DNA from: a bacterium
GTDB taxonomy: Bacteria; Krumholzibacteriota; Krumholzibacteriia; G020349025
Length of the DNA stretch: 64,000 nt
NCBI GenBank assembly: GCA_031362565.1
Contig: JANLSU010000073.1
Span: 64,001 to 128,000 of the forward strand
Reading direction: 5' to 3'
The notes under the pieces were generated by a model that saw nothing but the letters and a program-made list of their open reading frames with translations, ran no database searches and was not told where the DNA came from. This document shows positions 54,269-63,913 of this stretch, piece after piece. The number at the start of each line of letters is the position of its first letter. Position 1 is the stretch's first letter. Made by a program: the position numbers and the translations under genes.

Positions 54269-55666
54269 TTGTTGAAACAGTACTATCTTGGGTGTCTCGC
54301 ACATGCTTCCTACTTGATCGCCGATGAAACGACCGGGGTGGCTGCCGTTGTCGATCCGCAGCGCGACGTGGATCAGTACCTGTCTGACGCGGCCGCGGGC
54401 GGCCTGCGGATCGAACACGTTTTCTTGACGCATTTTCACGCCGACTTCGTCGCCGGGCATCTCGAACTGCGGGCCCGCACCGGGGCCACCATTCACCTGG
54501 GGGCGCGGGCCGAGGCCGACTACGCATTCGTTCCGGGCCGCGATGGTGACCGCCTCGAACTCGGTCCCAACGTCCGTCTCGAAATTTTGGAGACGCCGGG
54601 GCACACCCCCGAGAGCATCTCGCTCGTCGTGCACGATCGCCAGCAGGATGCCGTCAATCCATATGCAGTTTTGACTGGCGACACGTTGTTCATCGGCGAT
54701 GTCGGGCGCCCGGATCTCATGGCTTCGGTGGGCATGACCGCCGAGGAATTGGCCGGCCTGCTTTACGATTCGCTGCGCAACAAACTGTTGGTGCTGCCGG
54801 ATGCGACGCTCGTCTATCCGGCCCACGGCGCCGGTTCGATGTGCGGCAAGAATCTCTCGAAGGAAACCGTCTCGACACTCGGTGAGCAGCGCAAGTTCAA
54901 CTACGCATTGCAACCCATGGCGCGGGACGAGTTCGTGCGCTTGGTGACCGCCGATCAGCCGGAAGCGCCCGGTTATTTCGCCTATGACGCCGATCTCAAT
55001 CGTCGCGAACGGCCAACGCTCGACATGACACTAGCGCGCATGCTCCAACCGCTCGCGTTGGAGGAAGTGCTCCGCATGGCGGCTGCGGGCGCCTACGTTC
55101 TCGATGTCCGCGACCCGGCGGATTGGGCCGGCGCACACCTGGCGGGCAGCATCAACATTGGTTTGTCGGGGCAGTTCGCGACTTGGGCTGGATCGCTGCT
55201 CGATCGGACTCGCGCCATCGTCGTCGTGGCTGATCCCGGCCGCGAGAGCGAAGCCGCGACGCGGCTCGGCCGGATTGGGTTCGATCACTTGGCGGGCTAT
55301 CTCGACACCGGGATGGCGGCGCTCGCGGGCCGCCCCGAATTGCTGCGGGCTCACGAACGGGTCACGGCACCGGTGCTGGCGGAATGGCTCGCCCAGGCGG
55401 CGCCACCCGTCGTCCTCGACATTCGCAATCCAGGCGAACGCGACGCGAAGCACATCGCTGGCAGTCTGCACATTCCGCTCGCCCAGCTCGAACGCCGTCG
55501 CGGCGAAATACCGCGTGGCCGGCGGCTCGTCGTGCATTGCGCCGGTGGCTATCGCTCGATGATCGCTCTCAGCTTGCTCGAACACCACGCTGTTCCCGAC
55601 GCCACCGACCTGGTGGGCGGCATCGCCGCCTGGGAGAAATCGGCGCTGCCGGTGCAACTCGCGTAG
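54269..55666 (+). CDS. MBL-fold hydrolase (persulfide dioxygenase-like) with two rhodanese domains
   Basis: CLAHASY, THFHADF, TPGHTPE, TGDTLFIGDVGRPDL, PAHGAGSMCG, VHCAGGYRS. Confidence 0.92.
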   Translation: MLKQYYLGCLAHASYLIADETTGVAAVVDPQRDVDQYLSDAAAGGLRIEHVFLTHFHADFVAGHLELRARTGATIHLGARAEADYAFVPGRDGDRLELGPNVRLEILETPGHTPESISLVVHDRQQDAVNPYAVLTGDTLFIGDVGRPDLMASVGMTAEELAGLLYDSLRNKLLVLPDATLVYPAHGAGSMCGKNLSKETVSTLGEQRKFNYALQPMARDEFVRLVTADQPEAPGYFAYDADLNRRERPTLDMTLARMLQPLALEEVLRMAAAGAYVLDVRDPADWAGAHLAGSINIGLSGQFATWAGSLLDRTRAIVVVADPGRESEAATRLGRIGFDHLAGYLDTGMAALAGRPELLRAHERVTAPVLAEWLAQAAPPVVLDIRNPGERDAKHIAGSLHIPLAQLERRRGEIPRGRRLVVHCAGGYRSMIALSLLEHHAVPDATDLVGGIAAWEKSALPVQLA

Positions 55667-55779
55667 AGCAGTTGGTTGTTTCTACCGAAGGACATCCCGA
55701 CAACCCCCGGCGGCTCGAAACGGAGCGCCGCTTGCTAAACGGCGGAGAGATCCCCGTTGTCGTGTTTGGAGGGGGCTGC

Positions 55780-57063
55780 GTGGAACGCCCGATCAACCGC
55801 GTCGTCGTGCTCGGTGCGAACGGCACGATGGGGGCCCAATCGGCCGCGCTGTTTGCACGTGCCGGTGCCGAGGTCGTGTGCGTCAGCCGGACGGTGGAGA
55901 AATCCGCTGCCGCGATCACCCGCCTCTTGGCCAAGGAACCTGAACTCGCGCCGCGCTTGCAGGCGATCGCGTACGACGGCCTGCCGGCCGCGCTCGTGGG
56001 CTGCGACTGGGTGTTCGAGGCCCTGGGCGAGGACGCAACGCTCAAAAGCACCATTTTTGCGATCATCGACCGGCACCGGGCACCCGATTGCGTCGTCAGC
56101 ACCGTGACGAGCGGCCTTTCCATCACCGCCCTCGCCGCGAGCTGCAGCCCGTCCTTTCAGCAACATTTTATCGGCACGCACTTCTTCAACCCACCGGCGA
56201 AGCTCCTTGCCTGCGAGCGGATCGCGCATCCCGCGGCGCGGCCGGAGTTCGTCGAGTTCATCGACACCTACTTGCGCGAGCGCTTGCAACGCGTCGTCAT
56301 TCCGGCGCGCGATGTGCCGGGGTTCGCGGGCAATCGCATCGGCTTCCAGTTCCTGAATCAGGCGGCCCAGGCGGCCGAGACGCACGGTGTGTTGGCGGTG
56401 GACACCTTGCTCGGCGGCTACACGGGGCGGGCGTTGCCGCCGCTCGCGACCATCGATCTCGTCGGTCTCGACGTGCACCGGGCGATCGTCGACAACGTCT
56501 TCGCCAATGCCGCGCACGATTGCCGGGAATGCTTCCAGGTGCCGGAGTTCGTCGCCGCGATGATCGGCCGCGGGCAGCTCGGCAAGAAGGCGCCGCAAGC
56601 CGGCGGATTCTATGGCCCGCGCACCAACGGCGCTCGGCCGGTGTGGAACGTGCAGCTCGCGGTGCACGAAACCCCCGAAGCACCGCGCTATGATTTCGTA
56701 GACGCCGCAATCGCGGCGCTGCAGACGGGCGATGCGGCGGCCGCGATCCGCGGCGTGTTCGCGGCGACTGAAGGGCCGGCGCGCTTCGTTCAAAAAATAC
56801 TGGCAAACTACCTGCACTACTCGTTCTCGCGAGTCGGCGATGTTACGGACACTGCGGACGGCATTCATGGCATCGACGCCGTGATGGCGCACGGGTTCTG
56901 CTGGGCGCCACCTGGCGCGTTCGTGGATCTGCTCGGTGGGCCGGCGGCGACGGCGCGCGTGCTCGTGGCGAACGGGTTCCGGGTGCCGGTGGCGCTTGCG
57001 GAGCTGCCGGAGGGTGCCAGCGTTTGTCGGATTGCCAACCCCGCGAAGTTCTTCCTCGTCTGA
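55780..57063 (+). CDS. 3-hydroxyacyl-CoA dehydrogenase-like protein
   Basis: VLGANGTMG, WVFEALGED..LK, TVTSGLSI, GTHFFNPP, PGFAGNRIG, TIDLVGLDV, GQLGKK. Confidence 0.85.
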   Translation: MERPINRVVVLGANGTMGAQSAALFARAGAEVVCVSRTVEKSAAAITRLLAKEPELAPRLQAIAYDGLPAALVGCDWVFEALGEDATLKSTIFAIIDRHRAPDCVVSTVTSGLSITALAASCSPSFQQHFIGTHFFNPPAKLLACERIAHPAARPEFVEFIDTYLRERLQRVVIPARDVPGFAGNRIGFQFLNQAAQAAETHGVLAVDTLLGGYTGRALPPLATIDLVGLDVHRAIVDNVFANAAHDCRECFQVPEFVAAMIGRGQLGKKAPQAGGFYGPRTNGARPVWNVQLAVHETPEAPRYDFVDAAIAALQTGDAAAAIRGVFAATEGPARFVQKILANYLHYSFSRVGDVTDTADGIHGIDAVMAHGFCWAPPGAFVDLLGGPAATARVLVANGFRVPVALAELPEGASVCRIANPAKFFLV

Positions 57064-57102
57064 CCGGAGGTCCAGGCGCTTCGCGCCTGGACGACTGCCC
57101 CT

Positions 57103-57132
57103 TGGACACCTAGCCTCCACGCGCGGTAGAAT
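57103..57132 (+). promoter_or_regulatory. Candidate sigma70 promoter TGGACA-N18-TAGAAT upstream of the aro-cmoA operon
   Basis: Located in the 151-bp gap between the HADH-like gene and the CM/DAHP synthase gene. Confidence 0.5.
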
Positions 57133-57214
57133 CCCTGCCGAACGCGGCGCACGGCGCCCCGATCCGAGCCCGGATTCTTCACTGATTCACCCACCGTGCA
57201 TTGGAGAACGTCGC

Positions 57215-58282
57215 ATGTCCGACGTCACCATCACTGCCTTGCGCCAGAGGATCGACGCGCTCAACACCCAGCTTCTGGGGCTTCTCCAGGAGCGCGCCGC
57301 GGTTGTGCTCGACATCGCCAACCTCAAACAGTCGCACGGCATCGACGGCTACGACCCGAAACGCGAAGAAGAAATGCTGCACCGGCTCGTGGCCGAGGCC
57401 AACGGGCCTTTCGGGCCCGCCGAGGTCAGCGAAATCTTCAAGACCATCTTCCGGGTTTCACTCGATATTCAGGATCGCGACCGGCAGCAGAAGCTGCGGG
57501 TGCGGCGCCGCGACTTGGTACCCGAGGGTGGGCTGCGGGTCGGCAAAGCGGTGTTCGGCGGCGGCAAACCGGTGCTGATCGCCGGACCTTGTTCGGTGGA
57601 GTCGGCCGAGCAAATGGAGCGCATCGCGGCGGGACTGGCGAAGATTCCGGCGGTCAAGCTCTTGCGCGGCGGCGCCTTCAAGCCGCGCACCAATCCCTAT
57701 TCGTTCCAGGGCCTGCGCGAAGAAGGGCTCAAGCTGTTGCAGGATGCCGGCCGCCGGCATGGCCTGACGACCGTCACCGAAGTCTTGGACACTTCGACGC
57801 TCGATTTGGTGAGCGAGTACACGGACATGTTGCAGGTCGGTTCGCGCAACATGTACAACACCGAACTTTTGAAGGCGATTGGCAAGACTCGCAAGCCGGT
57901 GCTGCTCAAGCGTGGCTTCATGGCGACGCTCGAAGAATTCATGCTGGCGGCGGAGTACATCCTGGCCGAAGGCAACGACAAGGTCGTGTTGTGCGAACGC
58001 GGCATTCGCACCTTCGAGCGCTGGACGCGCAACACCCTCGACATTTCCGCCGTGCCGCTCCTCAAGCAGGAGACATCCTTGCCGGTGATCGTCGACCTGA
58101 GCCACGCGCTCGGGCGGAGCGACATCTTGACGCCGTGTGCGCGTGCGGCTCTCGCCGCCGGCGCCGACGGGCTCATGATCGAAGTGCACGACCGGCCGGA
58201 TCAAGCTTTGTCCGACGGATTCCAGCAGGTCGATCTCGCGGTATTCGAGAAGTTCGTGCGCGACGTGGGGGTCCAAGCGTGA
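57215..58282 (+). CDS. Bifunctional chorismate mutase (AroQ-type) / class I-beta DAHP synthase (Bacillus AroA/AroG type)
   Basis: N-terminal LRQRIDALNTQLLGLLQERA...YDPKREEEML; DAHP synthase IAGPCSVES, RGGAFKPRT, QVGSRNM, LLKRG, CERGIRTF, DLSH, IEVH. Confidence 0.95.
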   Translation: MSDVTITALRQRIDALNTQLLGLLQERAAVVLDIANLKQSHGIDGYDPKREEEMLHRLVAEANGPFGPAEVSEIFKTIFRVSLDIQDRDRQQKLRVRRRDLVPEGGLRVGKAVFGGGKPVLIAGPCSVESAEQMERIAAGLAKIPAVKLLRGGAFKPRTNPYSFQGLREEGLKLLQDAGRRHGLTTVTEVLDTSTLDLVSEYTDMLQVGSRNMYNTELLKAIGKTRKPVLLKRGFMATLEEFMLAAEYILAEGNDKVVLCERGIRTFERWTRNTLDISAVPLLKQETSLPVIVDLSHALGRSDILTPCARAALAAGADGLMIEVHDRPDQALSDGFQQVDLAVFEKFVRDVGVQA

Positions 58283-59070
58283 AACCGGTCGACCCGCAGC
58301 CCGCCGCGGACTCTTTAGTGCGGCCTCGTGGCGCCAGCGTCCCTAAAGATCAGGTCTTCGCCCAGCCGCGCGCCAAGATCGAAGACTTCAACTTCGGCCA
58401 CGACACGGCAGTCGTCTTCGACGACATGCTGGAACGCTCGGTACCGTTCTACGGTGAAATTCAGCGCATGGTGGCCGAGTTGGCCGCCGATTTCGCCGCC
58501 GACGGGACTGCAGTCGTCGATCTCGGCTGTTCGACCTGCACGAGCTTCCTGCAAATCGGCGCGGCACTGCCGCCGGATGTCGGGGTGCGCTTCGTGGGCA
58601 TCGACAGCTCGGAGGAAATGCTCGATCAAGCCCGCGAGAAACTGACCGCGGCGCGCTTCGCACGTCCCTACGAATTGCGCTGCCAGAACATGGACCAGGG
58701 CGTCGACGTGAGTGGCGCTTCGGTGGTGCTCCTGGTGTTGACCCTGCAGTTCGTGCGGCCGTTGCATCGCGAGCGCATCATGCGCAGCATCTACGACGGC
58801 ATGGAACCCAACGGCTGCTTGATCCTGGTGGAAAAGGTGTTGGGTGAGAGCTCCACCTTCAACCGGCTCTTCATCAAGCACTACTACGACATGAAGCGCA
58901 AGAACGGTTACAGCGATCTCGAAATTGCCCAAAAGCGCGAAGCGCTCGAGAACGTCCTCGTTCCGTACCAACTGGAAGAGAATAAACTGCTTCTCCAGCA
59001 GTGCGGATTCCGCAGCGTCGATGTGTTCTTCAAGTGGTACAACTTTTGCGGCATGTTGGCGATGAAGTGA
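58279..59070 (+). CDS. cmoA: Carboxy-S-adenosyl-L-methionine synthase CmoA
   Basis: VFDDMLERSVPFY, DLGCST, IDSSEEM, TLQF, EK, KRKNGYSDLEIAQKREALENVL, YNF align with E. coli CmoA motifs. GTG start overlaps the upstream TGA. Confidence 0.92.
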   Translation: MKPVDPQPAADSLVRPRGASVPKDQVFAQPRAKIEDFNFGHDTAVVFDDMLERSVPFYGEIQRMVAELAADFAADGTAVVDLGCSTCTSFLQIGAALPPDVGVRFVGIDSSEEMLDQAREKLTAARFARPYELRCQNMDQGVDVSGASVVLLVLTLQFVRPLHRERIMRSIYDGMEPNGCLILVEKVLGESSTFNRLFIKHYYDMKRKNGYSDLEIAQKREALENVLVPYQLEENKLLLQQCGFRSVDVFFKWYNFCGMLAMK

Positions 59071-59831
59071 ACACGCCGGCCGCTATCCCGGCGCCAGCAC
59101 CGGCGCGCACCCCGCTCGTGGCTCTGGGTAAGGTCTTTTTCCGGAGCCGCGACGTGACGCTGCCGGCTGTCCTGGTGCTGCTCACAGCCCTCGGTACCGC
59201 CCGCGATCCACTCGCTGGACCGGCCGCGGACCGGGTGATGACCGTGCTGGGCATCGCGCTCGCCCTCGCCGGCCAAGCCTTGCGCGCCGTCGTCATCGGC
59301 CTCGTCTACATCCAACGCGGCGGCAAGAACCGCCGGATTCATGCCGATACGCTCGTCACGGACGGCTTCTTCGCCCACTGCCGGAACCCGCTCTACGTCG
59401 GCAACATCGCGATCCAGGTTGGACTGTTGTGCGTGCTGCACTCGTTCTGGGGCTACGTCATTGGAGTGCCCTTCGTGCTGCTCGTGTACGTAGCGATCGT
59501 TGCCGCCGAAGAAGAGTTCCTGCGCCGCCAATTCGGTGCCGCATATCACGCCTACTGCCGCCGGGTGCGCCGCTTCGTGCCGCGTTTGACCGGCCTGGGT
59601 GAAACGCTGCGCAGTACGTCGTTCGAGTGGCGCCGTCTGGTCCGCAAGGAGTACGGCGCGACCGCCGCCTGGATGTCGATGTGCGGCGCCATTCTCTTGT
59701 GGAAGACCTACCGCCAGGGTGGGTTCGCGGCGCGGCCTGACTTCGTGCGTGGCGTCGTGATCGCCTGGGGCCTCGTTCTGGTGGGCTACGGCGTGGCGCG
59801 CGCCCTCAAGAAGGCCGGCCGGCTCGGCTGA
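59067..59831 (+). CDS. ICMT/PEMT-superfamily integral membrane SAM-type transferase, LmtA (lipid A phosphate methyltransferase)-like
   Basis: GKVFFRSRD, LVTDGFFAHCRNPLYVGN, AEEEFLRRQFGAAY..Y...VRRFVP, FEWRRLVRKEY; GTGA overlap with cmoA. Confidence 0.85.
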   Translation: MNTPAAIPAPAPARTPLVALGKVFFRSRDVTLPAVLVLLTALGTARDPLAGPAADRVMTVLGIALALAGQALRAVVIGLVYIQRGGKNRRIHADTLVTDGFFAHCRNPLYVGNIAIQVGLLCVLHSFWGYVIGVPFVLLVYVAIVAAEEEFLRRQFGAAYHAYCRRVRRFVPRLTGLGETLRSTSFEWRRLVRKEYGATAAWMSMCGAILLWKTYRQGGFAARPDFVRGVVIAWGLVLVGYGVARALKKAGRLG

Positions 59832-59867
59832 TCGGGAAGTCTGCTGCCGGCGCATTCGCGCCGGCGA

Positions 59868-62273
59868 CTAGCGGCCGGCCGCCTTCAGGATCGCCGCCAC
59901 AATGTCGTCGTAGTTCGAGCCGAAACGGTGCCCGCTCGCGATTGCGTGCTTCTCGACGAGCGTCGAATCGAGTTGCGGGCCGATCGTGTCCGCGTCTTCC
60001 GTGCCATAGAAGGCCAGCATGCGGGTGCCGCGCAGTTGCTCGAGCTCGGGCAATGTCGGGCGCGCCGTCGGACGCTTGGCGTCACGAATCAGATCCATCA
60101 TATGGAATTCGAAGTCGGCACGCGCCGCGATGCCGAGGAGCGCGACCACATCGGTGCGCTGCCGGAGATCGCGTGGCAGGCGATTGAGCAGGAACGGCAG
60201 GACGTCGGCGCCGTGCGAGTATCCCACATAGACGACGCGCTCCTTGTGCCAGGCAGCGAGATAGTGCCGCAGGAGGCGTTCGAGGTCGTGCGCCGCGCCC
60301 TCCGGTGTCCGCGGCGTCCAGAAATAGTGCTGTGAATTCACCACCACGACGGCGATGCCGTGCGCCGAGAGTTCATTGGCGATGCCTTTGTCGGTGACGC
60401 CGTAGCCGCCGTCGCCAGTCCACAGAACCGCAAGCTGGTCGGTCGCGGCCGCGAGCGGTTCGACTTCGGCGAGCGGCAAGTCGGCAAGCGAGTCGACCGC
60501 CGCCGCCGGCGGCTCGCTGTGATCGGCGCTCGCCGCGACGCGCGCGAAGGCGTCCTTGAACTGCGGCAGCCAATTCTTCGGCACGGAATAACCATGGCCG
60601 ACCTTCGGCAGCATTATGAGTTCCGCACCGCGCACCCTGTTCACGTAGGCCTGCGTCGCAGCGGGGTCGCACACTTGATCGACGGTGCCTTGGAGCGCGA
60701 CCCACGGCACTTCGAGTCCGCGTGCCGGCCGGAAGAGCACACCTTTCCCCTTGGGACCAGGGTCGAATTCGAGGCCGCTGCCCTTGCAGAACGGCTTCGT
60801 GAGCGGCAAATCAGGGCAGAAGCCCAGACTGACGGCGCCCTTGAACGTGGTCGCCGGCGCCTGCACCACGATCGCATAGACGAGCGTCGCACCCGACGAA
60901 TACCCGACGAGGACGGGCTTGGAGTAGCGCGGGTAGTCGAACTTCTTCTGGATGAACTGGCTCAACGCCTCGAAGTCGGCCGCCGGGTACGAGCACTTCT
61001 CCGGCGCCGCTTCGAGTTTCTCGAGGTAGTGCGTGATGTCGATGCCGACGACCAGCGCGTCGAGGGCGGCAAGATCGTGCGCCATGTCGACGACGCCTTC
61101 GTTCCAACCGCCGTCGCCCGACACGAAGAGCACGACGTTCTTCGGCTGTGGCGATTCGAAGTACAGATGCACGGTCCCGAAGCGTCCGAAGGTAGCGACG
61201 TCCTCGGTCGCATGAGCCGCTGGTGCCGCGGCCATGAGCATGCAAGCCGCGATCGCGATGGCGCCGGCGCCCGGCGCCGCACGCCGCACGACGCGCGCGT
61301 ACAGGAACAGGCTCAGCACGAACGGCACGAGGTAGTACACGGCGCGGAAGACGATCGCAGCAAGCACGGCCTGTTCGAAGTCGACCCCCAGCAACACATA
61401 GACGCCGGTCATCGAACCCTCCTGAATTCCCATGCCGCCAGGCAGCATGGAGACGACTCCTAGGGTCACGCCGATAGCGAACCCGGTGATGAGTACACCG
61501 ACGTGCAATGGCGCACCGAGGGCGCGAAAGCAGAAACCGAGCGCCACGACACAGGTCACCCAGTCGGCGAGCACGAATGCGAGCGGCACTCCAAGCAAGC
61601 GGGGCCGGCTGCGAATCGTCATGATGCCGCGCCCGAGGGTGGTGTCGAGGTTGTGCAGCGCGGGAGCGAAATCCCGGCGCAGGAACCGCTGCCCTGCACG
61701 CGCCAGCAGGCGGGCCACGGCTTGCCGGGCCCGCGCCGTGACGAGCAGTGCCGTCGTGGCAACGAGCAGCAATACGACGAGCGCCGTCGCCGCGCATAGT
61801 GCTGCCGTGCGGCTTTGCCCCAGCGGATGATTCATGAGCAAGTACACGAGTCCGGCGGGCAAGAGCGACATCATGACCAGATGGTTGAAGTATGAGTGGA
61901 CGAGCGACGCCGCCAGAATGTCCTCGAGCCGATAGCCGCGCCGCCGCAATAAGATCGTCCGCAGCGAATACCCGGCGGCCCCACCCACCGCCACCAAGTT
62001 GTTGAGCGCGAAAGATACGAAACCGATTTCCAGCTGGTCGCGGCTGTCGAGCCGAATCCCGAAGATGCGGTTGATTGCCGTGAAGCCCTTGGTGAGGCAG
62101 GCATACGAGACGGCCGTGAAGAGCAACGCCGGCACCAGCGCCCGCCAATCGGCGCGCGATACGACGCGGAGCGCCTTCTCGCCGTCCATCGCCACCGCGA
62201 GAGCGCCGACGAAAGCCAACCCGATGATCAGACTGGCGACGAGGGCGCGGTGTCCAACGGCCGGTTTCGCCAT
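59868..62273 (-). CDS. Fusion of a lysyl-PG flippase-like TM domain (UPF0104/LPG_synthase_TM) with AcvB/VirJ aminoacyl-PG hydrolase
   Basis: N-terminal ~8 TM with LPGGMGIQEGSM and VFRAVYYLVPF; C-terminal two alpha/beta-hydrolase domains (SGDGGW...GYSSGA; TGDGGY...YFWTPRTPE...GYSHGADVLPF...GHRF). Confidence 0.85.
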   Translation of the reverse strand: MAKPAVGHRALVASLIIGLAFVGALAVAMDGEKALRVVSRADWRALVPALLFTAVSYACLTKGFTAINRIFGIRLDSRDQLEIGFVSFALNNLVAVGGAAGYSLRTILLRRRGYRLEDILAASLVHSYFNHLVMMSLLPAGLVYLLMNHPLGQSRTAALCAATALVVLLLVATTALLVTARARQAVARLLARAGQRFLRRDFAPALHNLDTTLGRGIMTIRSRPRLLGVPLAFVLADWVTCVVALGFCFRALGAPLHVGVLITGFAIGVTLGVVSMLPGGMGIQEGSMTGVYVLLGVDFEQAVLAAIVFRAVYYLVPFVLSLFLYARVVRRAAPGAGAIAIAACMLMAAAPAAHATEDVATFGRFGTVHLYFESPQPKNVVLFVSGDGGWNEGVVDMAHDLAALDALVVGIDITHYLEKLEAAPEKCSYPAADFEALSQFIQKKFDYPRYSKPVLVGYSSGATLVYAIVVQAPATTFKGAVSLGFCPDLPLTKPFCKGSGLEFDPGPKGKGVLFRPARGLEVPWVALQGTVDQVCDPAATQAYVNRVRGAELIMLPKVGHGYSVPKNWLPQFKDAFARVAASADHSEPPAAAVDSLADLPLAEVEPLAAATDQLAVLWTGDGGYGVTDKGIANELSAHGIAVVVVNSQHYFWTPRTPEGAAHDLERLLRHYLAAWHKERVVYVGYSHGADVLPFLLNRLPRDLRQRTDVVALLGIAARADFEFHMMDLIRDAKRPTARPTLPELEQLRGTRMLAFYGTEDADTIGPQLDSTLVEKHAIASGHRFGSNYDDIVAAILKAAGR

Positions 62274-62278
62274 GCGCT

Positions 62279-63913
62279 TCAATCCTCGGTCATGCGGGTC
62301 AGTGCGACGCCGGCGTTGACGAGCCCCGCAGGTCCGCCCTGATAGGCCAGGAAACGGTCCTCCCAGGCGGGTTCGAACTTGGCCTTGTAGTTCCGCAGTC
62401 CCTTGTACGAGAAGAACCGGTTCAGCCGTTCGTACAACTGGTGCACGGCGCGTTCCTCGAGCGGCGCGCCCGGGCGGTCGCCAACGCCGGCGAGCGGCGC
62501 GAGCCCGAGGCTGAATCGGCGCGCGCCGCCGGCGCCGAGCCGTGTCAGCGTCTCCATGAAGAGCAGGTCCATCGTGCCGTTCGGAATCTCCACCCGGTGT
62601 CGCATGAGATCCACGGTGGCATCGCCGTGGGGCCAGCAAGGAATGATGTTGACGAACGCCAGCGCCCGCCCTTGCGCGTTGCGACAGACGTAGAGCGGCG
62701 TCGTACCGATGTAGTCGCGCGTGAACGTGCCGAGCGTGAAGCCGCGCTCGCGGCGGCCCGGCACCGTGAGCCACTCGTTCGAAATCGCCTGCACGGCGTC
62801 GATCACCGCGGTCTCGTGCGGCGGCTCATGATACGTCACGATGAGTTCGAGCGTCTTGGCGCGGTTGGCGATACGGCGAAAGGTGTTCGAGCGGCACGTC
62901 GTCGCGGCGAAAGTCGGCAAGTCGACGAGTGCTTCTTCACCGATCTTGAGCACTCCCAAACCCAATTTCTGGTACAGCGGCAAGAGCGTCGGCAGCGTTT
63001 GGTGAAACGCTACGCGCCAGCCATTGTCGGCCGAGAAACGCAGGAAGGACTGGACGGTGGGCTCGATCTCGCCGGCGGGGCCGACCGGGTCCCCGAGCGC
63101 GATCGCAAAACCCCACGCGGCGCGATAGGCGATGACGCCCGAATCACCGGGGCCGAAGAAGAAGGACTTGTCAGGCCAGGTCTTGAAGTAGTCGAGCGAC
63201 GACCGGCCATGCGCCTCGATGATGTGCCGGGCCCGTTCGCGCTCGTTGGGCAGCGTGCGCAGCCGGAAGGCCAAGGGGCGATAGAGCGAAAACACCGCGA
63301 AGCCGAGCGAAGCGACGCCCATCACCTGCAACGAATCGAGAAACCAGCGCGCATGGCGCGTGTGCGCCACGAGGTCGGCGTTGCCCGAGAGCCCGTACCC
63401 GAGCAGCGAGCGGCGGATGGCGTCGCGCCACGCGAACTCGAGGCCGAAGTCACGCCGGTCGAGCAGCCAGAATCCGGCGGCGCCATAGGCGATGGCGGCG
63501 ATCAGGCTCGCGGCCACCAGCAGGATGCCTTGCGCGATGCTACGTGGTTCACTACGCACCGTAAAACGCCGCCGGAGCGCCAGGAGCAACACCAACGTCG
63601 CAGCGGGTGCGATCGCCAGCGTCGGGTGATGGCCACGGCCGAGGTGCGCGCCCGCTGCCACGGCGAGTGTGGCGCAGGCCAGCCACCAGGCGGCCCGCCG
63701 GCGCCGATACAAATGGTAAGACAGGTCCGCAAGCAAGAAGCCGCTGGCCAGCGTGACGTGCTTGCTCCAGTGATGTGTGCCGAACGGCAGCACGAATGAG
63801 AAGAGCGCCGGGGCGTCGTGGGCGCGGACGAAGAGCGTATGCAGGATCCCGAGCGCACCGCTAGCAAGAGTCAACAGCGCAACAAGAACGATGGCGGGAT
63901 CGCGACGCTGCAT
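62279..63913 (-). CDS. mprF: Aminoacyl-phosphatidylglycerol synthase (MprF/LpiA C-terminal DUF2156 domain with ~5-6 TM)
   Basis: LYRRRRAAW, DKSFFF, ALGDPVG, KIGEEALVDL, RERGFTLG, VDLMRH, GTMDLLF, FSLGLAPL, FFSYKGLRNYKAKFEPAWE. Confidence 0.92.
   Translation of the reverse strand: MQRRDPAIVLVALLTLASGALGILHTLFVRAHDAPALFSFVLPFGTHHWSKHVTLASGFLLADLSYHLYRRRRAAWWLACATLAVAAGAHLGRGHHPTLAIAPAATLVLLLALRRRFTVRSEPRSIAQGILLVAASLIAAIAYGAAGFWLLDRRDFGLEFAWRDAIRRSLLGYGLSGNADLVAHTRHARWFLDSLQVMGVASLGFAVFSLYRPLAFRLRTLPNERERARHIIEAHGRSSLDYFKTWPDKSFFFGPGDSGVIAYRAAWGFAIALGDPVGPAGEIEPTVQSFLRFSADNGWRVAFHQTLPTLLPLYQKLGLGVLKIGEEALVDLPTFAATTCRSNTFRRIANRAKTLELIVTYHEPPHETAVIDAVQAISNEWLTVPGRRERGFTLGTFTRDYIGTTPLYVCRNAQGRALAFVNIIPCWPHGDATVDLMRHRVEIPNGTMDLLFMETLTRLGAGGARRFSLGLAPLAGVGDRPGAPLEERAVHQLYERLNRFFSYKGLRNYKAKFEPAWEDRFLAYQGGPAGLVNAGVALTRMTED

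Follow-up and report, generated by a model that had tools for sequence, protein, structure and literature searches.

A cmoA-linked membrane protein of the ICMT/PEMT fold in Krumholzibacteriota and other bacteria: a candidate carboxy-SAM-dependent carboxymethyltransferase

The stretch of DNA described here, which we call the window, is a 64,000-nucleotide segment of a Krumholzibacteriota genome (GenBank assembly GCA_031362565.1, contig JANLSU010000073.1, positions 64,001 to 128,000 of the forward strand). It contains an operon of three genes that encode a chorismate mutase/DAHP (3-deoxy-D-arabino-heptulosonate 7-phosphate) synthase, a homologue of the carboxy-S-adenosylmethionine (carboxy-SAM) synthase CmoA, and an integral membrane protein of the ICMT/PEMT fold. 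Comparison of this operon with related loci in genomes and metagenomes suggests that the membrane protein is probably a carboxymethyltransferase that depends on carboxy-SAM and has some component of the membrane as its target. A preliminary description of the DNA had listed three genes joined by GTGA overlaps behind a candidate promoter of their own, and all of these features were found, in that order and on that strand, in the sequence and its translations:

57103-57132, + strand: promoter-like TGGACA-18 nt-TAGAAT, a consensus match only (10 of 12 positions)
57215-58282, + strand: gene 1, chorismate mutase/DAHP synthase, 355 residues, ATG at 57215
58279-58282, + strand: GTGA start/stop overlap of genes 1 and 2, read in the sequence
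58279-59070, + strand: gene 2, cmoA, 263 residues
59067-59070, + strand: GTGA start/stop overlap of genes 2 and 3, read in the sequence
59067-59831, + strand: gene 3, ICMT/PEMT-fold membrane protein, 254 residues

The promoter-like site is the only one of its kind in 56900-60100, a region in which shuffled sequences give 0.4 +/- 0.6 such sites. Gene 1 has an N-terminal AroQ domain (Pfam CM_2, residues 9-86, 76 bits) followed by a DAHP synthase domain (DAHP_synth_1, residues 112-347, 257.6 bits), and it is a member of the Bacillus-type bifunctional DAHP synthase/chorismate mutase family, passing the NCBIfam model NF009239 at 478.8 bits against a cut-off of 279. Elsewhere the genome encodes a stand-alone DAHP synthase (480 bits, cut-off 335), a KDO8P synthase and a chorismate mutase-prephenate dehydratase. 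Because both a DAHP synthase and a chorismate mutase are thus present outside the operon, gene 1 is an extra copy, and it is found in an operon with cmoA and not with genes of aromatic amino acid synthesis.

The product of gene 2 passes the CmoA model TIGR00740 at 235.2 bits (cut-off 193.3), and a search of the whole genome with the same model found it to be the only CmoA there (235 bits). We aligned it to E. coli CmoA (4gek), counting positions by hand, and compared the cofactor contacts given in the published structural account (PMC3663124), among which Arg199 forms a salt bridge with the carboxylate of the cofactor. Arg220 of gene 2 is the equivalent of Arg199, and the equivalents of Tyr39, Asp62, Gly64, Ser66, Asp89, Phe137 and Glu164 are also retained. 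Both Arg220 and Glu185, the equivalent of Glu164, are invariant in all 38 of the CmoA proteins encoded beside a membrane protein of this type that were aligned.

In the tRNA uridine-5-oxyacetic acid (cmo5U) pathway the carboxy-SAM made by CmoA is used by CmoB, and the preliminary description had remarked that the window contains no cmoB. The same is true of the genome as a whole, an assembly that is 100% complete in 133 contigs, where the best match to the CmoB model TIGR00452 reaches 36.7 bits against a cut-off of 275, and of a sample of 208 genomes of the phylum, none of which has a CmoB match at E 1e-20 or better. The N-terminal domain of the tRNA hydroxylase TrhO (family PF17773) was likewise not found in the genome. 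Across the same 208 genomes a profile of the membrane protein, termed A1, gave strong matches (270-385 bits) in five (G000, G001, G005, G006 and G123), and CmoA was found over its cut-off in the same five and in none other. The cmoA gene adjoins the membrane gene in all five carriers. In the incomplete genome G004 (64% complete), a chorismate mutase/DAHP synthase gene is followed by cmoA, where the locus is cut by the end of the contig. The four-base overlap between cmoA and the membrane gene (ATGA or GTGA) is present in four of four genomes of the window's family, that is, in the window and in three of three relatives. Long open frames in G005 and G006 were considered as possible cmoA-membrane gene fusions and rejected, as cmoA has its own stop codon there and the genes overlap by four bases.

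The linkage extends well beyond this phylum. Metagenomes were scanned with the profile of the membrane protein alone, and the best 80 of 557 confirmed relatives were examined; the testable set consists of the 76 of these 80 loci in which the match is preceded by 100 nt or more of upstream DNA. A CmoA-like match lies directly upstream in 73 of the 76, the match has at least 50% identity and reaches the C-terminus of CmoA in 72, and in 70 a cmoA of at least 50% identity is either whole or cut solely by the edge of the contig. When redundancy was removed from 74 of the 80 loci (omitting four without upstream DNA and two in which the membrane-protein match was shortened), cmoA was upstream in 56 of 62 clusters formed at 90% identity. 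The loci span 33.5-72.7% G+C, so the linkage is not confined to one lineage. A survey of gene neighbourhoods, which the preliminary description had put forward as one means of checking its proposal, finds linkage of cmoA to this ICMT/PEMT-type gene to be conserved, both in the metagenome loci and in all 16 carrier genomes of two unrelated lineages, namely the window's phylum and the order of Crenothrix.

The second of these lineages is informative about the role of the linked CmoA. A single-protein search of genome contigs returned only two loci, both from Crenothrix genomes and both with the pair in reverse order, and a sample of 151 genomes of the order was then searched (the tallies of CmoA and CmoB take in genome G252, on which no claim rests). 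The membrane protein is encoded in 11 of the 151 (223-333 bits on the profile) and adjoins cmoA in every one, with cmoA first in eight and the membrane gene first in three. CmoA is found over its cut-off in 113 of the 151 genomes and CmoB in 122, and in at least 29 genomes that do not carry the membrane protein cmoA abuts cmoB (for example G301, G279, G358 and G218, read by eye). In the 11 carriers, the gene for CmoB is either found on a different contig from the linked cmoA or separated from it by 200 kb or more. The linked CmoA is nevertheless the sole CmoA in nine of the 11, the others being G327, which has a second full copy, and G267, which has a partial one; because it is the only CmoA in these nine genomes while CmoB is kept, it must, we infer, be a working carboxy-SAM synthase. 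On TIGR00740 the linked CmoA proteins score 209-264 bits, compared with about 276-331 bits for those encoded against cmoB in the same order. This pattern suggests displacement of the resident cmoA in the carriers by a cmoA-transferase cassette that came in from elsewhere. In the two Crenothrix loci (L010, 2840-4878, and L011, 2738-4776) the pair follows guaB, guaA and a gene for a tadA-like deaminase (MafB19-deam/dCMP_cyt_deam_1), a setting of housekeeping genes that differs from the one in the window.

The connection with prephenate seen in the window recurs in three independent forms. The first is an upstream gene: 36 metagenome loci extend for 400 nt or more on the upstream side of cmoA, and there 15 of them encode a chorismate mutase/DAHP synthase and a further three (L098, L108 and L110) a chorismate mutase only. 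The second is a DAHP synthase from a different lineage (34-36% identity), whose gene is found on the downstream side of the membrane gene in L077, in L087 and in genome G123. The third is a domain fusion. An exhaustive profile search gave 379 representatives of the membrane protein, each standing for a cluster at 50% identity, below E 1e-30, and among the 150 of these that were listed all 12 proteins of at least 309 residues were scanned for domains. In P0168, P0171, P0187, P0194 and P0196, hence in at least five clusters, the membrane domain is fused to a C-terminal CM_2 domain (56-66 bits, cut-off 27), with the motifs YIKRGGK and PRW of the linked proteins retained. One of these fusions is an NCBI record from a metagenome-assembled genome of the Phycisphaerales, named 'chorismate mutase', and another carries the JGI name 'Ste14/chorismate mutase'. 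Ten aligned chorismate mutase domains, including the fused ones, have four basic residues and one aspartate in common. We know of no role for prephenate in plain S-adenosylmethionine (SAM) methyl transfer. Synthesis of carboxy-SAM by CmoA does require prephenate (PMC10491745), and a user of carboxy-SAM would for that reason have cause to be fused to a chorismate mutase.

Two other architectures were encountered among the relatives. P0134 and five members of its cluster (501-507 residues, on six contigs) have tandem ICMT/PEMT domains, the first of which is of the cmoA-linked type, and P0263 (442 residues) is a member of the linked clade in which a linker of about 100 residues leads to a C-terminal OmpA-family (peptidoglycan-binding) domain; if this domain is periplasmic, the protein must have an extra membrane pass. 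A word-index search at E 1e-20 for fused relatives of greater length returned none, and it carries no weight, having also missed the chorismate mutase fusions.

The membrane protein itself passes Pfam PF04191 (PEMT) at 41.3 bits (cut-off 25) and PF04140 (ICMT) at 26.1 bits (cut-off 24), and a protein atlas search gave generic PEMT/ICMT clusters only. It falls below the model for the ICMT equivalog, NF040696 (45.1 bits, cut-off 160), which aligns with the core only, residues 94-173. The nearest named family is LmtA, the lipid A Kdo2 1-phosphate O-methyltransferase (TIGR04571), which is similar in length and in the layout of its helices. Gene 3 scores 72.8 bits on this model and the Crenothrix homologue 80.2 bits, the alignments of the clade proteins (73-80 bits) covering about 200 of 252 model positions. 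The AlphaFold model of gene 3 (predicted local distance difference test, pLDDT, 87.3; predicted template modelling score, pTM, 0.85) is confident outside residues 1-5 and the loop 83-92, and its closest structures are ICMT enzymes:

5vg9 (ICMT): Z 11.8, 140 residues aligned, root-mean-square deviation 3.0
5v7p (ICMT): Z 10.5, 140 residues aligned, root-mean-square deviation 3.1
4a2n (ICMT): Z 10.2, 147 residues aligned, root-mean-square deviation 3.3

These are followed by sterol reductases of the same superfamily, unrelated structures having Z of 7 or less, and Foldseek places the same ICMT entries on top with a probability of 0.97-0.99 and weak E values of 0.06-0.2. The fold of the cofactor core and the motifs LVxxGxFxxxRNPxY and EExxL...FG..Y..Y are common to gene 3 and to ICMT/Ste14, whereas gene 3 departs from ICMT in its N-terminal half, is extended at the C-terminus by a helical hairpin (187-254), and is a bacterial protein without any context of prenylation. 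There are six helices. Our own reading of their positions together with the positive-inside rule would place the two ends of the protein in the cytoplasm, along with the loop 79-107 and residues 148-187, an arrangement that fits both a cytoplasmic cofactor and the fusion of a chorismate mutase to the C-terminus.

A true LmtA-like sister group exists in the same phylum. Eleven other genomes (G013, G030, G032, G033, G055, G066, G067, G074, G108, G109 and G136; loci L117-L127) encode a full-length LmtA-like protein with 112-135 bits on A1, and the three of the eleven that were scanned with TIGR04571 match it end to end at 226-245 bits, under its Leptospira-specific cut-off of 325. None of the eleven sister genes adjoins cmoA and none shares a genome with a member of the linked clade, an exclusivity that would fit two alternative modifications of one acceptor. 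In a quick maximum-likelihood tree of 103 rows, 95 of them different, the 92 rows of the clade are split from the 11 sisters with a Shimodaira-Hasegawa-like approximate likelihood ratio (SH-aLRT) support of 100 and on a long branch, and within the clade the rows from the order of Crenothrix are scattered over at least five places. The term 'LmtA-like' used in the preliminary description is thus apt in so far as LmtA and its sister clade are the nearest relatives, but the operon's protein, at 72.8 bits against a cut-off of 325, is not a member of that family.

The clade and its sisters have the cofactor core in common (A93, L96, G100, R106, P108, Y110, N113, E148, E149, L152, F156 and G157) and differ from each other at the following positions of gene 3:

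Position 70: Gln in the clade, Leu in the sisters
Position 81: Tyr in the clade, Pro in the sisters
Position 84 (codon 59316-59318, + strand): Arg in the clade (76 of 76 linked rows), Thr in the sisters (11 of 11)
Position 85: Gly in the clade, Ser in the sisters
Position 97: Val in the clade, Asn in the sisters
Position 163: Tyr in the clade, Trp in the sisters
Position 169 (codon 59571-59573, + strand), after FG..Y..Y: Arg in the clade (97% of the 76 linked rows), Ala or Val in the sisters (11 of 11)

In a wider set of 132 full-length representatives of the clade, Arg84 is present in 129, Arg169 in 126 and Tyr163 in 130. According to published accounts, the carboxylate of carboxy-SAM is held by Lys91 and Arg315 in CmoB and by Arg350 in CmoX. 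Since arginine or lysine holds this carboxylate in CmoA, CmoB and CmoX, and since Arg84 and Arg169 set the clade apart from its sisters, these two residues are natural candidates for binding it. The preliminary description had suggested this role for a basic loop, QRGGKNRRIHAD, which spans positions 83-94 of the gene 3 product and immediately precedes the cofactor motif. The loop as a whole was rejected as the carboxylate site, as Arg84 alone of its basic residues is clade-specific and the others vary; what survives of the proposal is Arg84 itself, which is nearly invariant.

From these observations a mechanism may be proposed. The extra chorismate mutase/DAHP synthase would draw more carbon out of central metabolism into chorismate and prephenate, and CmoA, judging from its family membership, would carboxylate the methyl group of SAM at the expense of one prephenate per turnover. 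The membrane protein, with a cofactor core of the ICMT/LmtA type facing the cytoplasm, would then take carboxy-SAM instead of SAM, its extra carboxylate perhaps being held by Arg84 and Arg169, and would carboxymethylate a nucleophilic group of an acceptor embedded in the membrane, giving a product 58 Da heavier and with a new carboxylate. As for the acceptor, our best guess would be some envelope lipid of high abundance, and in the first place a lipid phosphate, for instance the 1-phosphate of lipid A, the group methylated by LmtA. As one prephenate is spent for each carboxymethyl group, a bulk acceptor would explain why the operon has a private DAHP synthase when the tRNA system does not. The idea of a dedicated prephenate supply, a CmoA and an ICMT-like enzyme standing in the place of CmoB, which was the core of the preliminary description, is strongly supported by comparative genomics, through the linkage, the absence of CmoB, the exact co-occurrence and the fusions. 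Assuming that the enzyme does use carboxy-SAM and does act on a membrane component, lipid A phosphate is a tentative and rather doubtful choice of acceptor. The window's genome has LpxC and LpxK and thus makes lipid A, so that such a substrate could exist.

Several observations weigh against the reading of the membrane protein as a carboxy-SAM-dependent enzyme acting on an envelope lipid, and they bear on the alternatives to different degrees. Some concern the proposed carboxylate site and the prephenate supply. At the place of QRGGKNRRIHAD the LmtA-like sisters have a loop that is likewise basic, and in the model residues 83-92 are disordered (pLDDT under 50). Half of the 36 metagenome loci with room upstream of cmoA (18) have unrelated genes and no chorismate mutase/DAHP synthase nearby, and a fusion of CmoA to the membrane enzyme was not found in a weak search by word index. 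Others concern the linkage itself. Three of the testable metagenome loci (L051, L088 and L093) have no cmoA upstream at all, L078 has instead a methyltransferase gene of 26% identity, and two have remnants:

L092, 299-574: cmoA remnant with an internal deletion, the membrane gene downstream being intact
L095, 1114-1275: cmoA remnant consisting of the last 54 codons only, the membrane gene downstream being intact

All six of these exceptional membrane proteins nest inside the clade in the tree, from which it appears that the membrane enzyme can persist without an adjacent intact cmoA; a cmoA could lie elsewhere in these genomes. One explanation that accommodates such loci, of which five of 76 are without an intact adjacent cmoA, is that the membrane protein is an ordinary SAM methyltransferase of the LmtA or ICMT kind and that the carboxy-SAM is consumed by some soluble enzyme that has escaped recognition, or by CmoB in genomes that have it. 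The motifs of its cofactor core (RNPLY, EE and FG) match those of SAM-using relatives, and all 11 carriers in the order of Crenothrix have CmoB and with it the usual sink for carboxy-SAM. According to one report, a few engineered and natural methyltransferases take both cofactors (PMC7496830). We nevertheless regard this explanation as very unlikely, because it would leave four observations without a cause: the exact co-occurrence with CmoA in a phylum free of CmoB (five of five genomes with the membrane protein against none of 203 without it), the near-universal adjacency across a G+C range of 33-73%, the position of cmoA here and not with cmoB in 11 of 11 genomes, and the chorismate mutase fusion.

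A different objection is that the linked CmoA homologue may not make carboxy-SAM at all, and may instead be a methyltransferase or the source of some other SAM derivative in a different two-step reaction, the chorismate mutase domain then serving to sense a ligand for regulation. Relative to E. coli CmoA, gene 2 has valine for Asn132 and serine for Asn90, both named as contacts in the structural account, and the linked CmoA proteins score lower on TIGR00740 than those encoded with cmoB. Moreover, the fused chorismate mutase domains do not have the residues at two catalytic positions that we take to be Glu52 and Gln88 of E. coli chorismate mutase, so these domains may bind a ligand without catalysis. 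This objection is highly improbable in our estimation, given that all of the linked proteins score over the curated cut-off, that the equivalents of Arg199 and Glu164 are invariant in 38 of 38, and that in nine of 11 Crenothrix-order genomes which keep CmoB the linked protein is the one CmoA from which carboxy-SAM must come. It is also conceivable that the membrane protein does use carboxy-SAM and that its acceptor is something other than an envelope lipid, for example a small lipophilic nucleophile such as a thiol, or a quinol, or else the C-terminal end of a protein that bears a lipid, the kind of target that a true ICMT has. For a thiol there are precedents in the ICMT-family methanethiol methyltransferase MddA, to which an LmtA-like sister gave a weak match (20.4 bits), and in the carboxymethylation of a thiol by TglF. 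Acceptors in the ICMT/PEMT superfamily include carboxylates, phosphates, amines and thiols, and known users of carboxy-SAM act on O, S, N and C nucleophiles; in addition, no gene of lipid A or phospholipid metabolism is among the conserved neighbours, which speaks against a lipid. An acceptor of this kind is unlikely, though, as the nearest relatives are LmtA-like (73-80 bits for the clade, 226-245 bits for the sisters), the variable neighbours lean to the envelope, with MprF-like genes in the window, and a dedicated DAHP synthase argues for an acceptor present in bulk. We thus consider that the membrane enzyme is probably a carboxy-SAM-dependent carboxymethyltransferase with a membrane component as its acceptor.

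The surroundings of the operon are compatible with this interpretation and do not point to a particular substrate. Beyond cmoA and chorismate mutase/DAHP synthase, no neighbour was generally conserved among the loci surveyed. Membrane glycosyltransferases of the PMT_2 (ArnT-like) family occur near the pair in nine loci, and other variable neighbours include a YhdP-like protein, a DedA/VTT protein, extracytoplasmic function (ECF) sigma/anti-sigma pairs and two-component systems. These genes lean towards the envelope, which would be compatible with a lipid acceptor but does not identify one.

In the window itself, the operon is followed by a hairpin and then by genes convergent with it, and preceded by genes on the same strand:

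54269-55666, + strand: metallo-beta-lactamase-fold/rhodanese fusion, 5' of the operon
55384-57063, + strand: region containing a 3-hydroxyacyl-CoA dehydrogenase gene, 5' of the operon
59846-59865: perfect 8-bp G+C hairpin, GCCGGCGC-ATTC-GCGCCGGC, between the stop codon of the operon and the convergent downstream gene
59868-63913, - strand: split MprF-like system, convergent with the operon

The two upstream genes have no apparent link to the operon. The hairpin folds at -22.9 kcal/mol (z -1.86), 9 of 200 shuffled sequences folding equally well; it has no T-run, and a terminator scan of the region after the operon made no call, so that it is weakly indicated as a possible terminator. One of the convergent genes encodes an LPG_synthase_TM domain (106.6 bits) fused to a VirJ/AcvB-like hydrolase domain (196.6 bits), and its neighbour encodes an LPG_synthase_C transferase domain (234.4 bits), a pair that belongs to aminoacyl-phosphatidylglycerol metabolism. 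The true start of the long open reading frame at 59868-62774 is probably well inside its listed 968 codons. These split MprF-like genes are not kept beside the operon in G001, G005 or G006.

Comparison with the systems already described indicates how the operon would relate to them. The published accounts consulted describe four uses of carboxy-SAM, in tRNA, in one peptide antimetabolite, in microcin C-like antibiotics and in phage DNA. The logic of the CmoA/CmoB pathway is that of the operon, in that a dedicated carboxy-SAM synthase is combined with a dedicated transferase, and the first enzyme is the same, with its carboxylate-binding arginine kept. The second enzyme differs: CmoB is a soluble protein with a Rossmann fold, while the transferase of the operon would be a non-homologous integral membrane protein of the ICMT/PEMT fold. 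The target differs as well, being tRNA in that pathway, which it cannot be for the operon, and the tRNA system does not carry its own chorismate mutase/DAHP synthase. In TglE/TglF (3-thiaglutamate), in MccS and MccB's C-terminal domain (microcin C-like compounds) and in phage CmoA/CmoX (5-carboxymethylcytosine), a CmoA homologue is likewise found beside a transferase that does not act on tRNA, and a basic residue recognises the carboxylate of the cofactor. TglF, the MccB domain and CmoX act on peptide, nucleotide and DNA, whereas the acceptor of the operon's enzyme is presumably a membrane component. A dedicated partner of the CmoA family encoded alongside may be taken as a mark of the carboxy-SAM carboxymethyltransferases as a functional class (CmoB, TglF, MccB's C-terminal domain and CmoX), and the membrane protein of the operon has such a partner.

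To our knowledge, the transferases in all four of the known uses of carboxy-SAM are soluble enzymes. Published descriptions assign a Rossmann or methyltransferase fold to CmoB and the MccB domain and treat CmoX as a homologue of C5-methyltransferases. Searches of full-text literature, a scope that leaves out most subscription journals, found no description of a membrane-bound user of carboxy-SAM. The protein described here would therefore most likely be the first membrane-integral carboxy-SAM-dependent carboxymethyltransferase, and the module would keep the known logic of CmoA and a dedicated transferase, while its enzyme fold and cellular location would be new and its class of product probably so. 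The nearest named family, LmtA, differs in the features already given, its sisters in the phylum never being linked to cmoA while the operon's clade is so linked in nearly every locus and stands on a separate long branch.

Taken as a whole, the comparative data would be consistent with bacteria of several phyla in soils and sediments carboxymethylating an abundant envelope lipid, such as lipid A at its 1-phosphate or a phospholipid at its head group, by means of a membrane-integral carboxy-SAM enzyme. According to the same reading, an offshoot of the LmtA/ICMT fold would have switched its donor from SAM to carboxy-SAM and would travel as a cmoA-transferase cassette, often with its own shikimate-entry enzyme or with a chorismate mutase fusion. 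All of these propositions held together are, in our judgement, about evenly balanced between being right and being wrong.

If the interpretation is true, it would widen carboxy-SAM chemistry by an enzyme fold and a class of target that are both new to it, and it would provide a function for a large family (379 clusters) whose members are at present annotated as 'Ste14' or 'methyltransferase family protein'. The SAM-type LmtA-like sister group and the carboxy-SAM-type clade, differing at Arg84 and Arg169, would also offer a natural pair for the study of cofactor specificity. For the bacteria themselves, the operon would predict an undescribed carboxymethylated envelope lipid that represents a new class of acidic membrane lipid, and carboxy-SAM would then be a bulk metabolite of envelope biogenesis and not merely a trace cofactor of tRNA modification.

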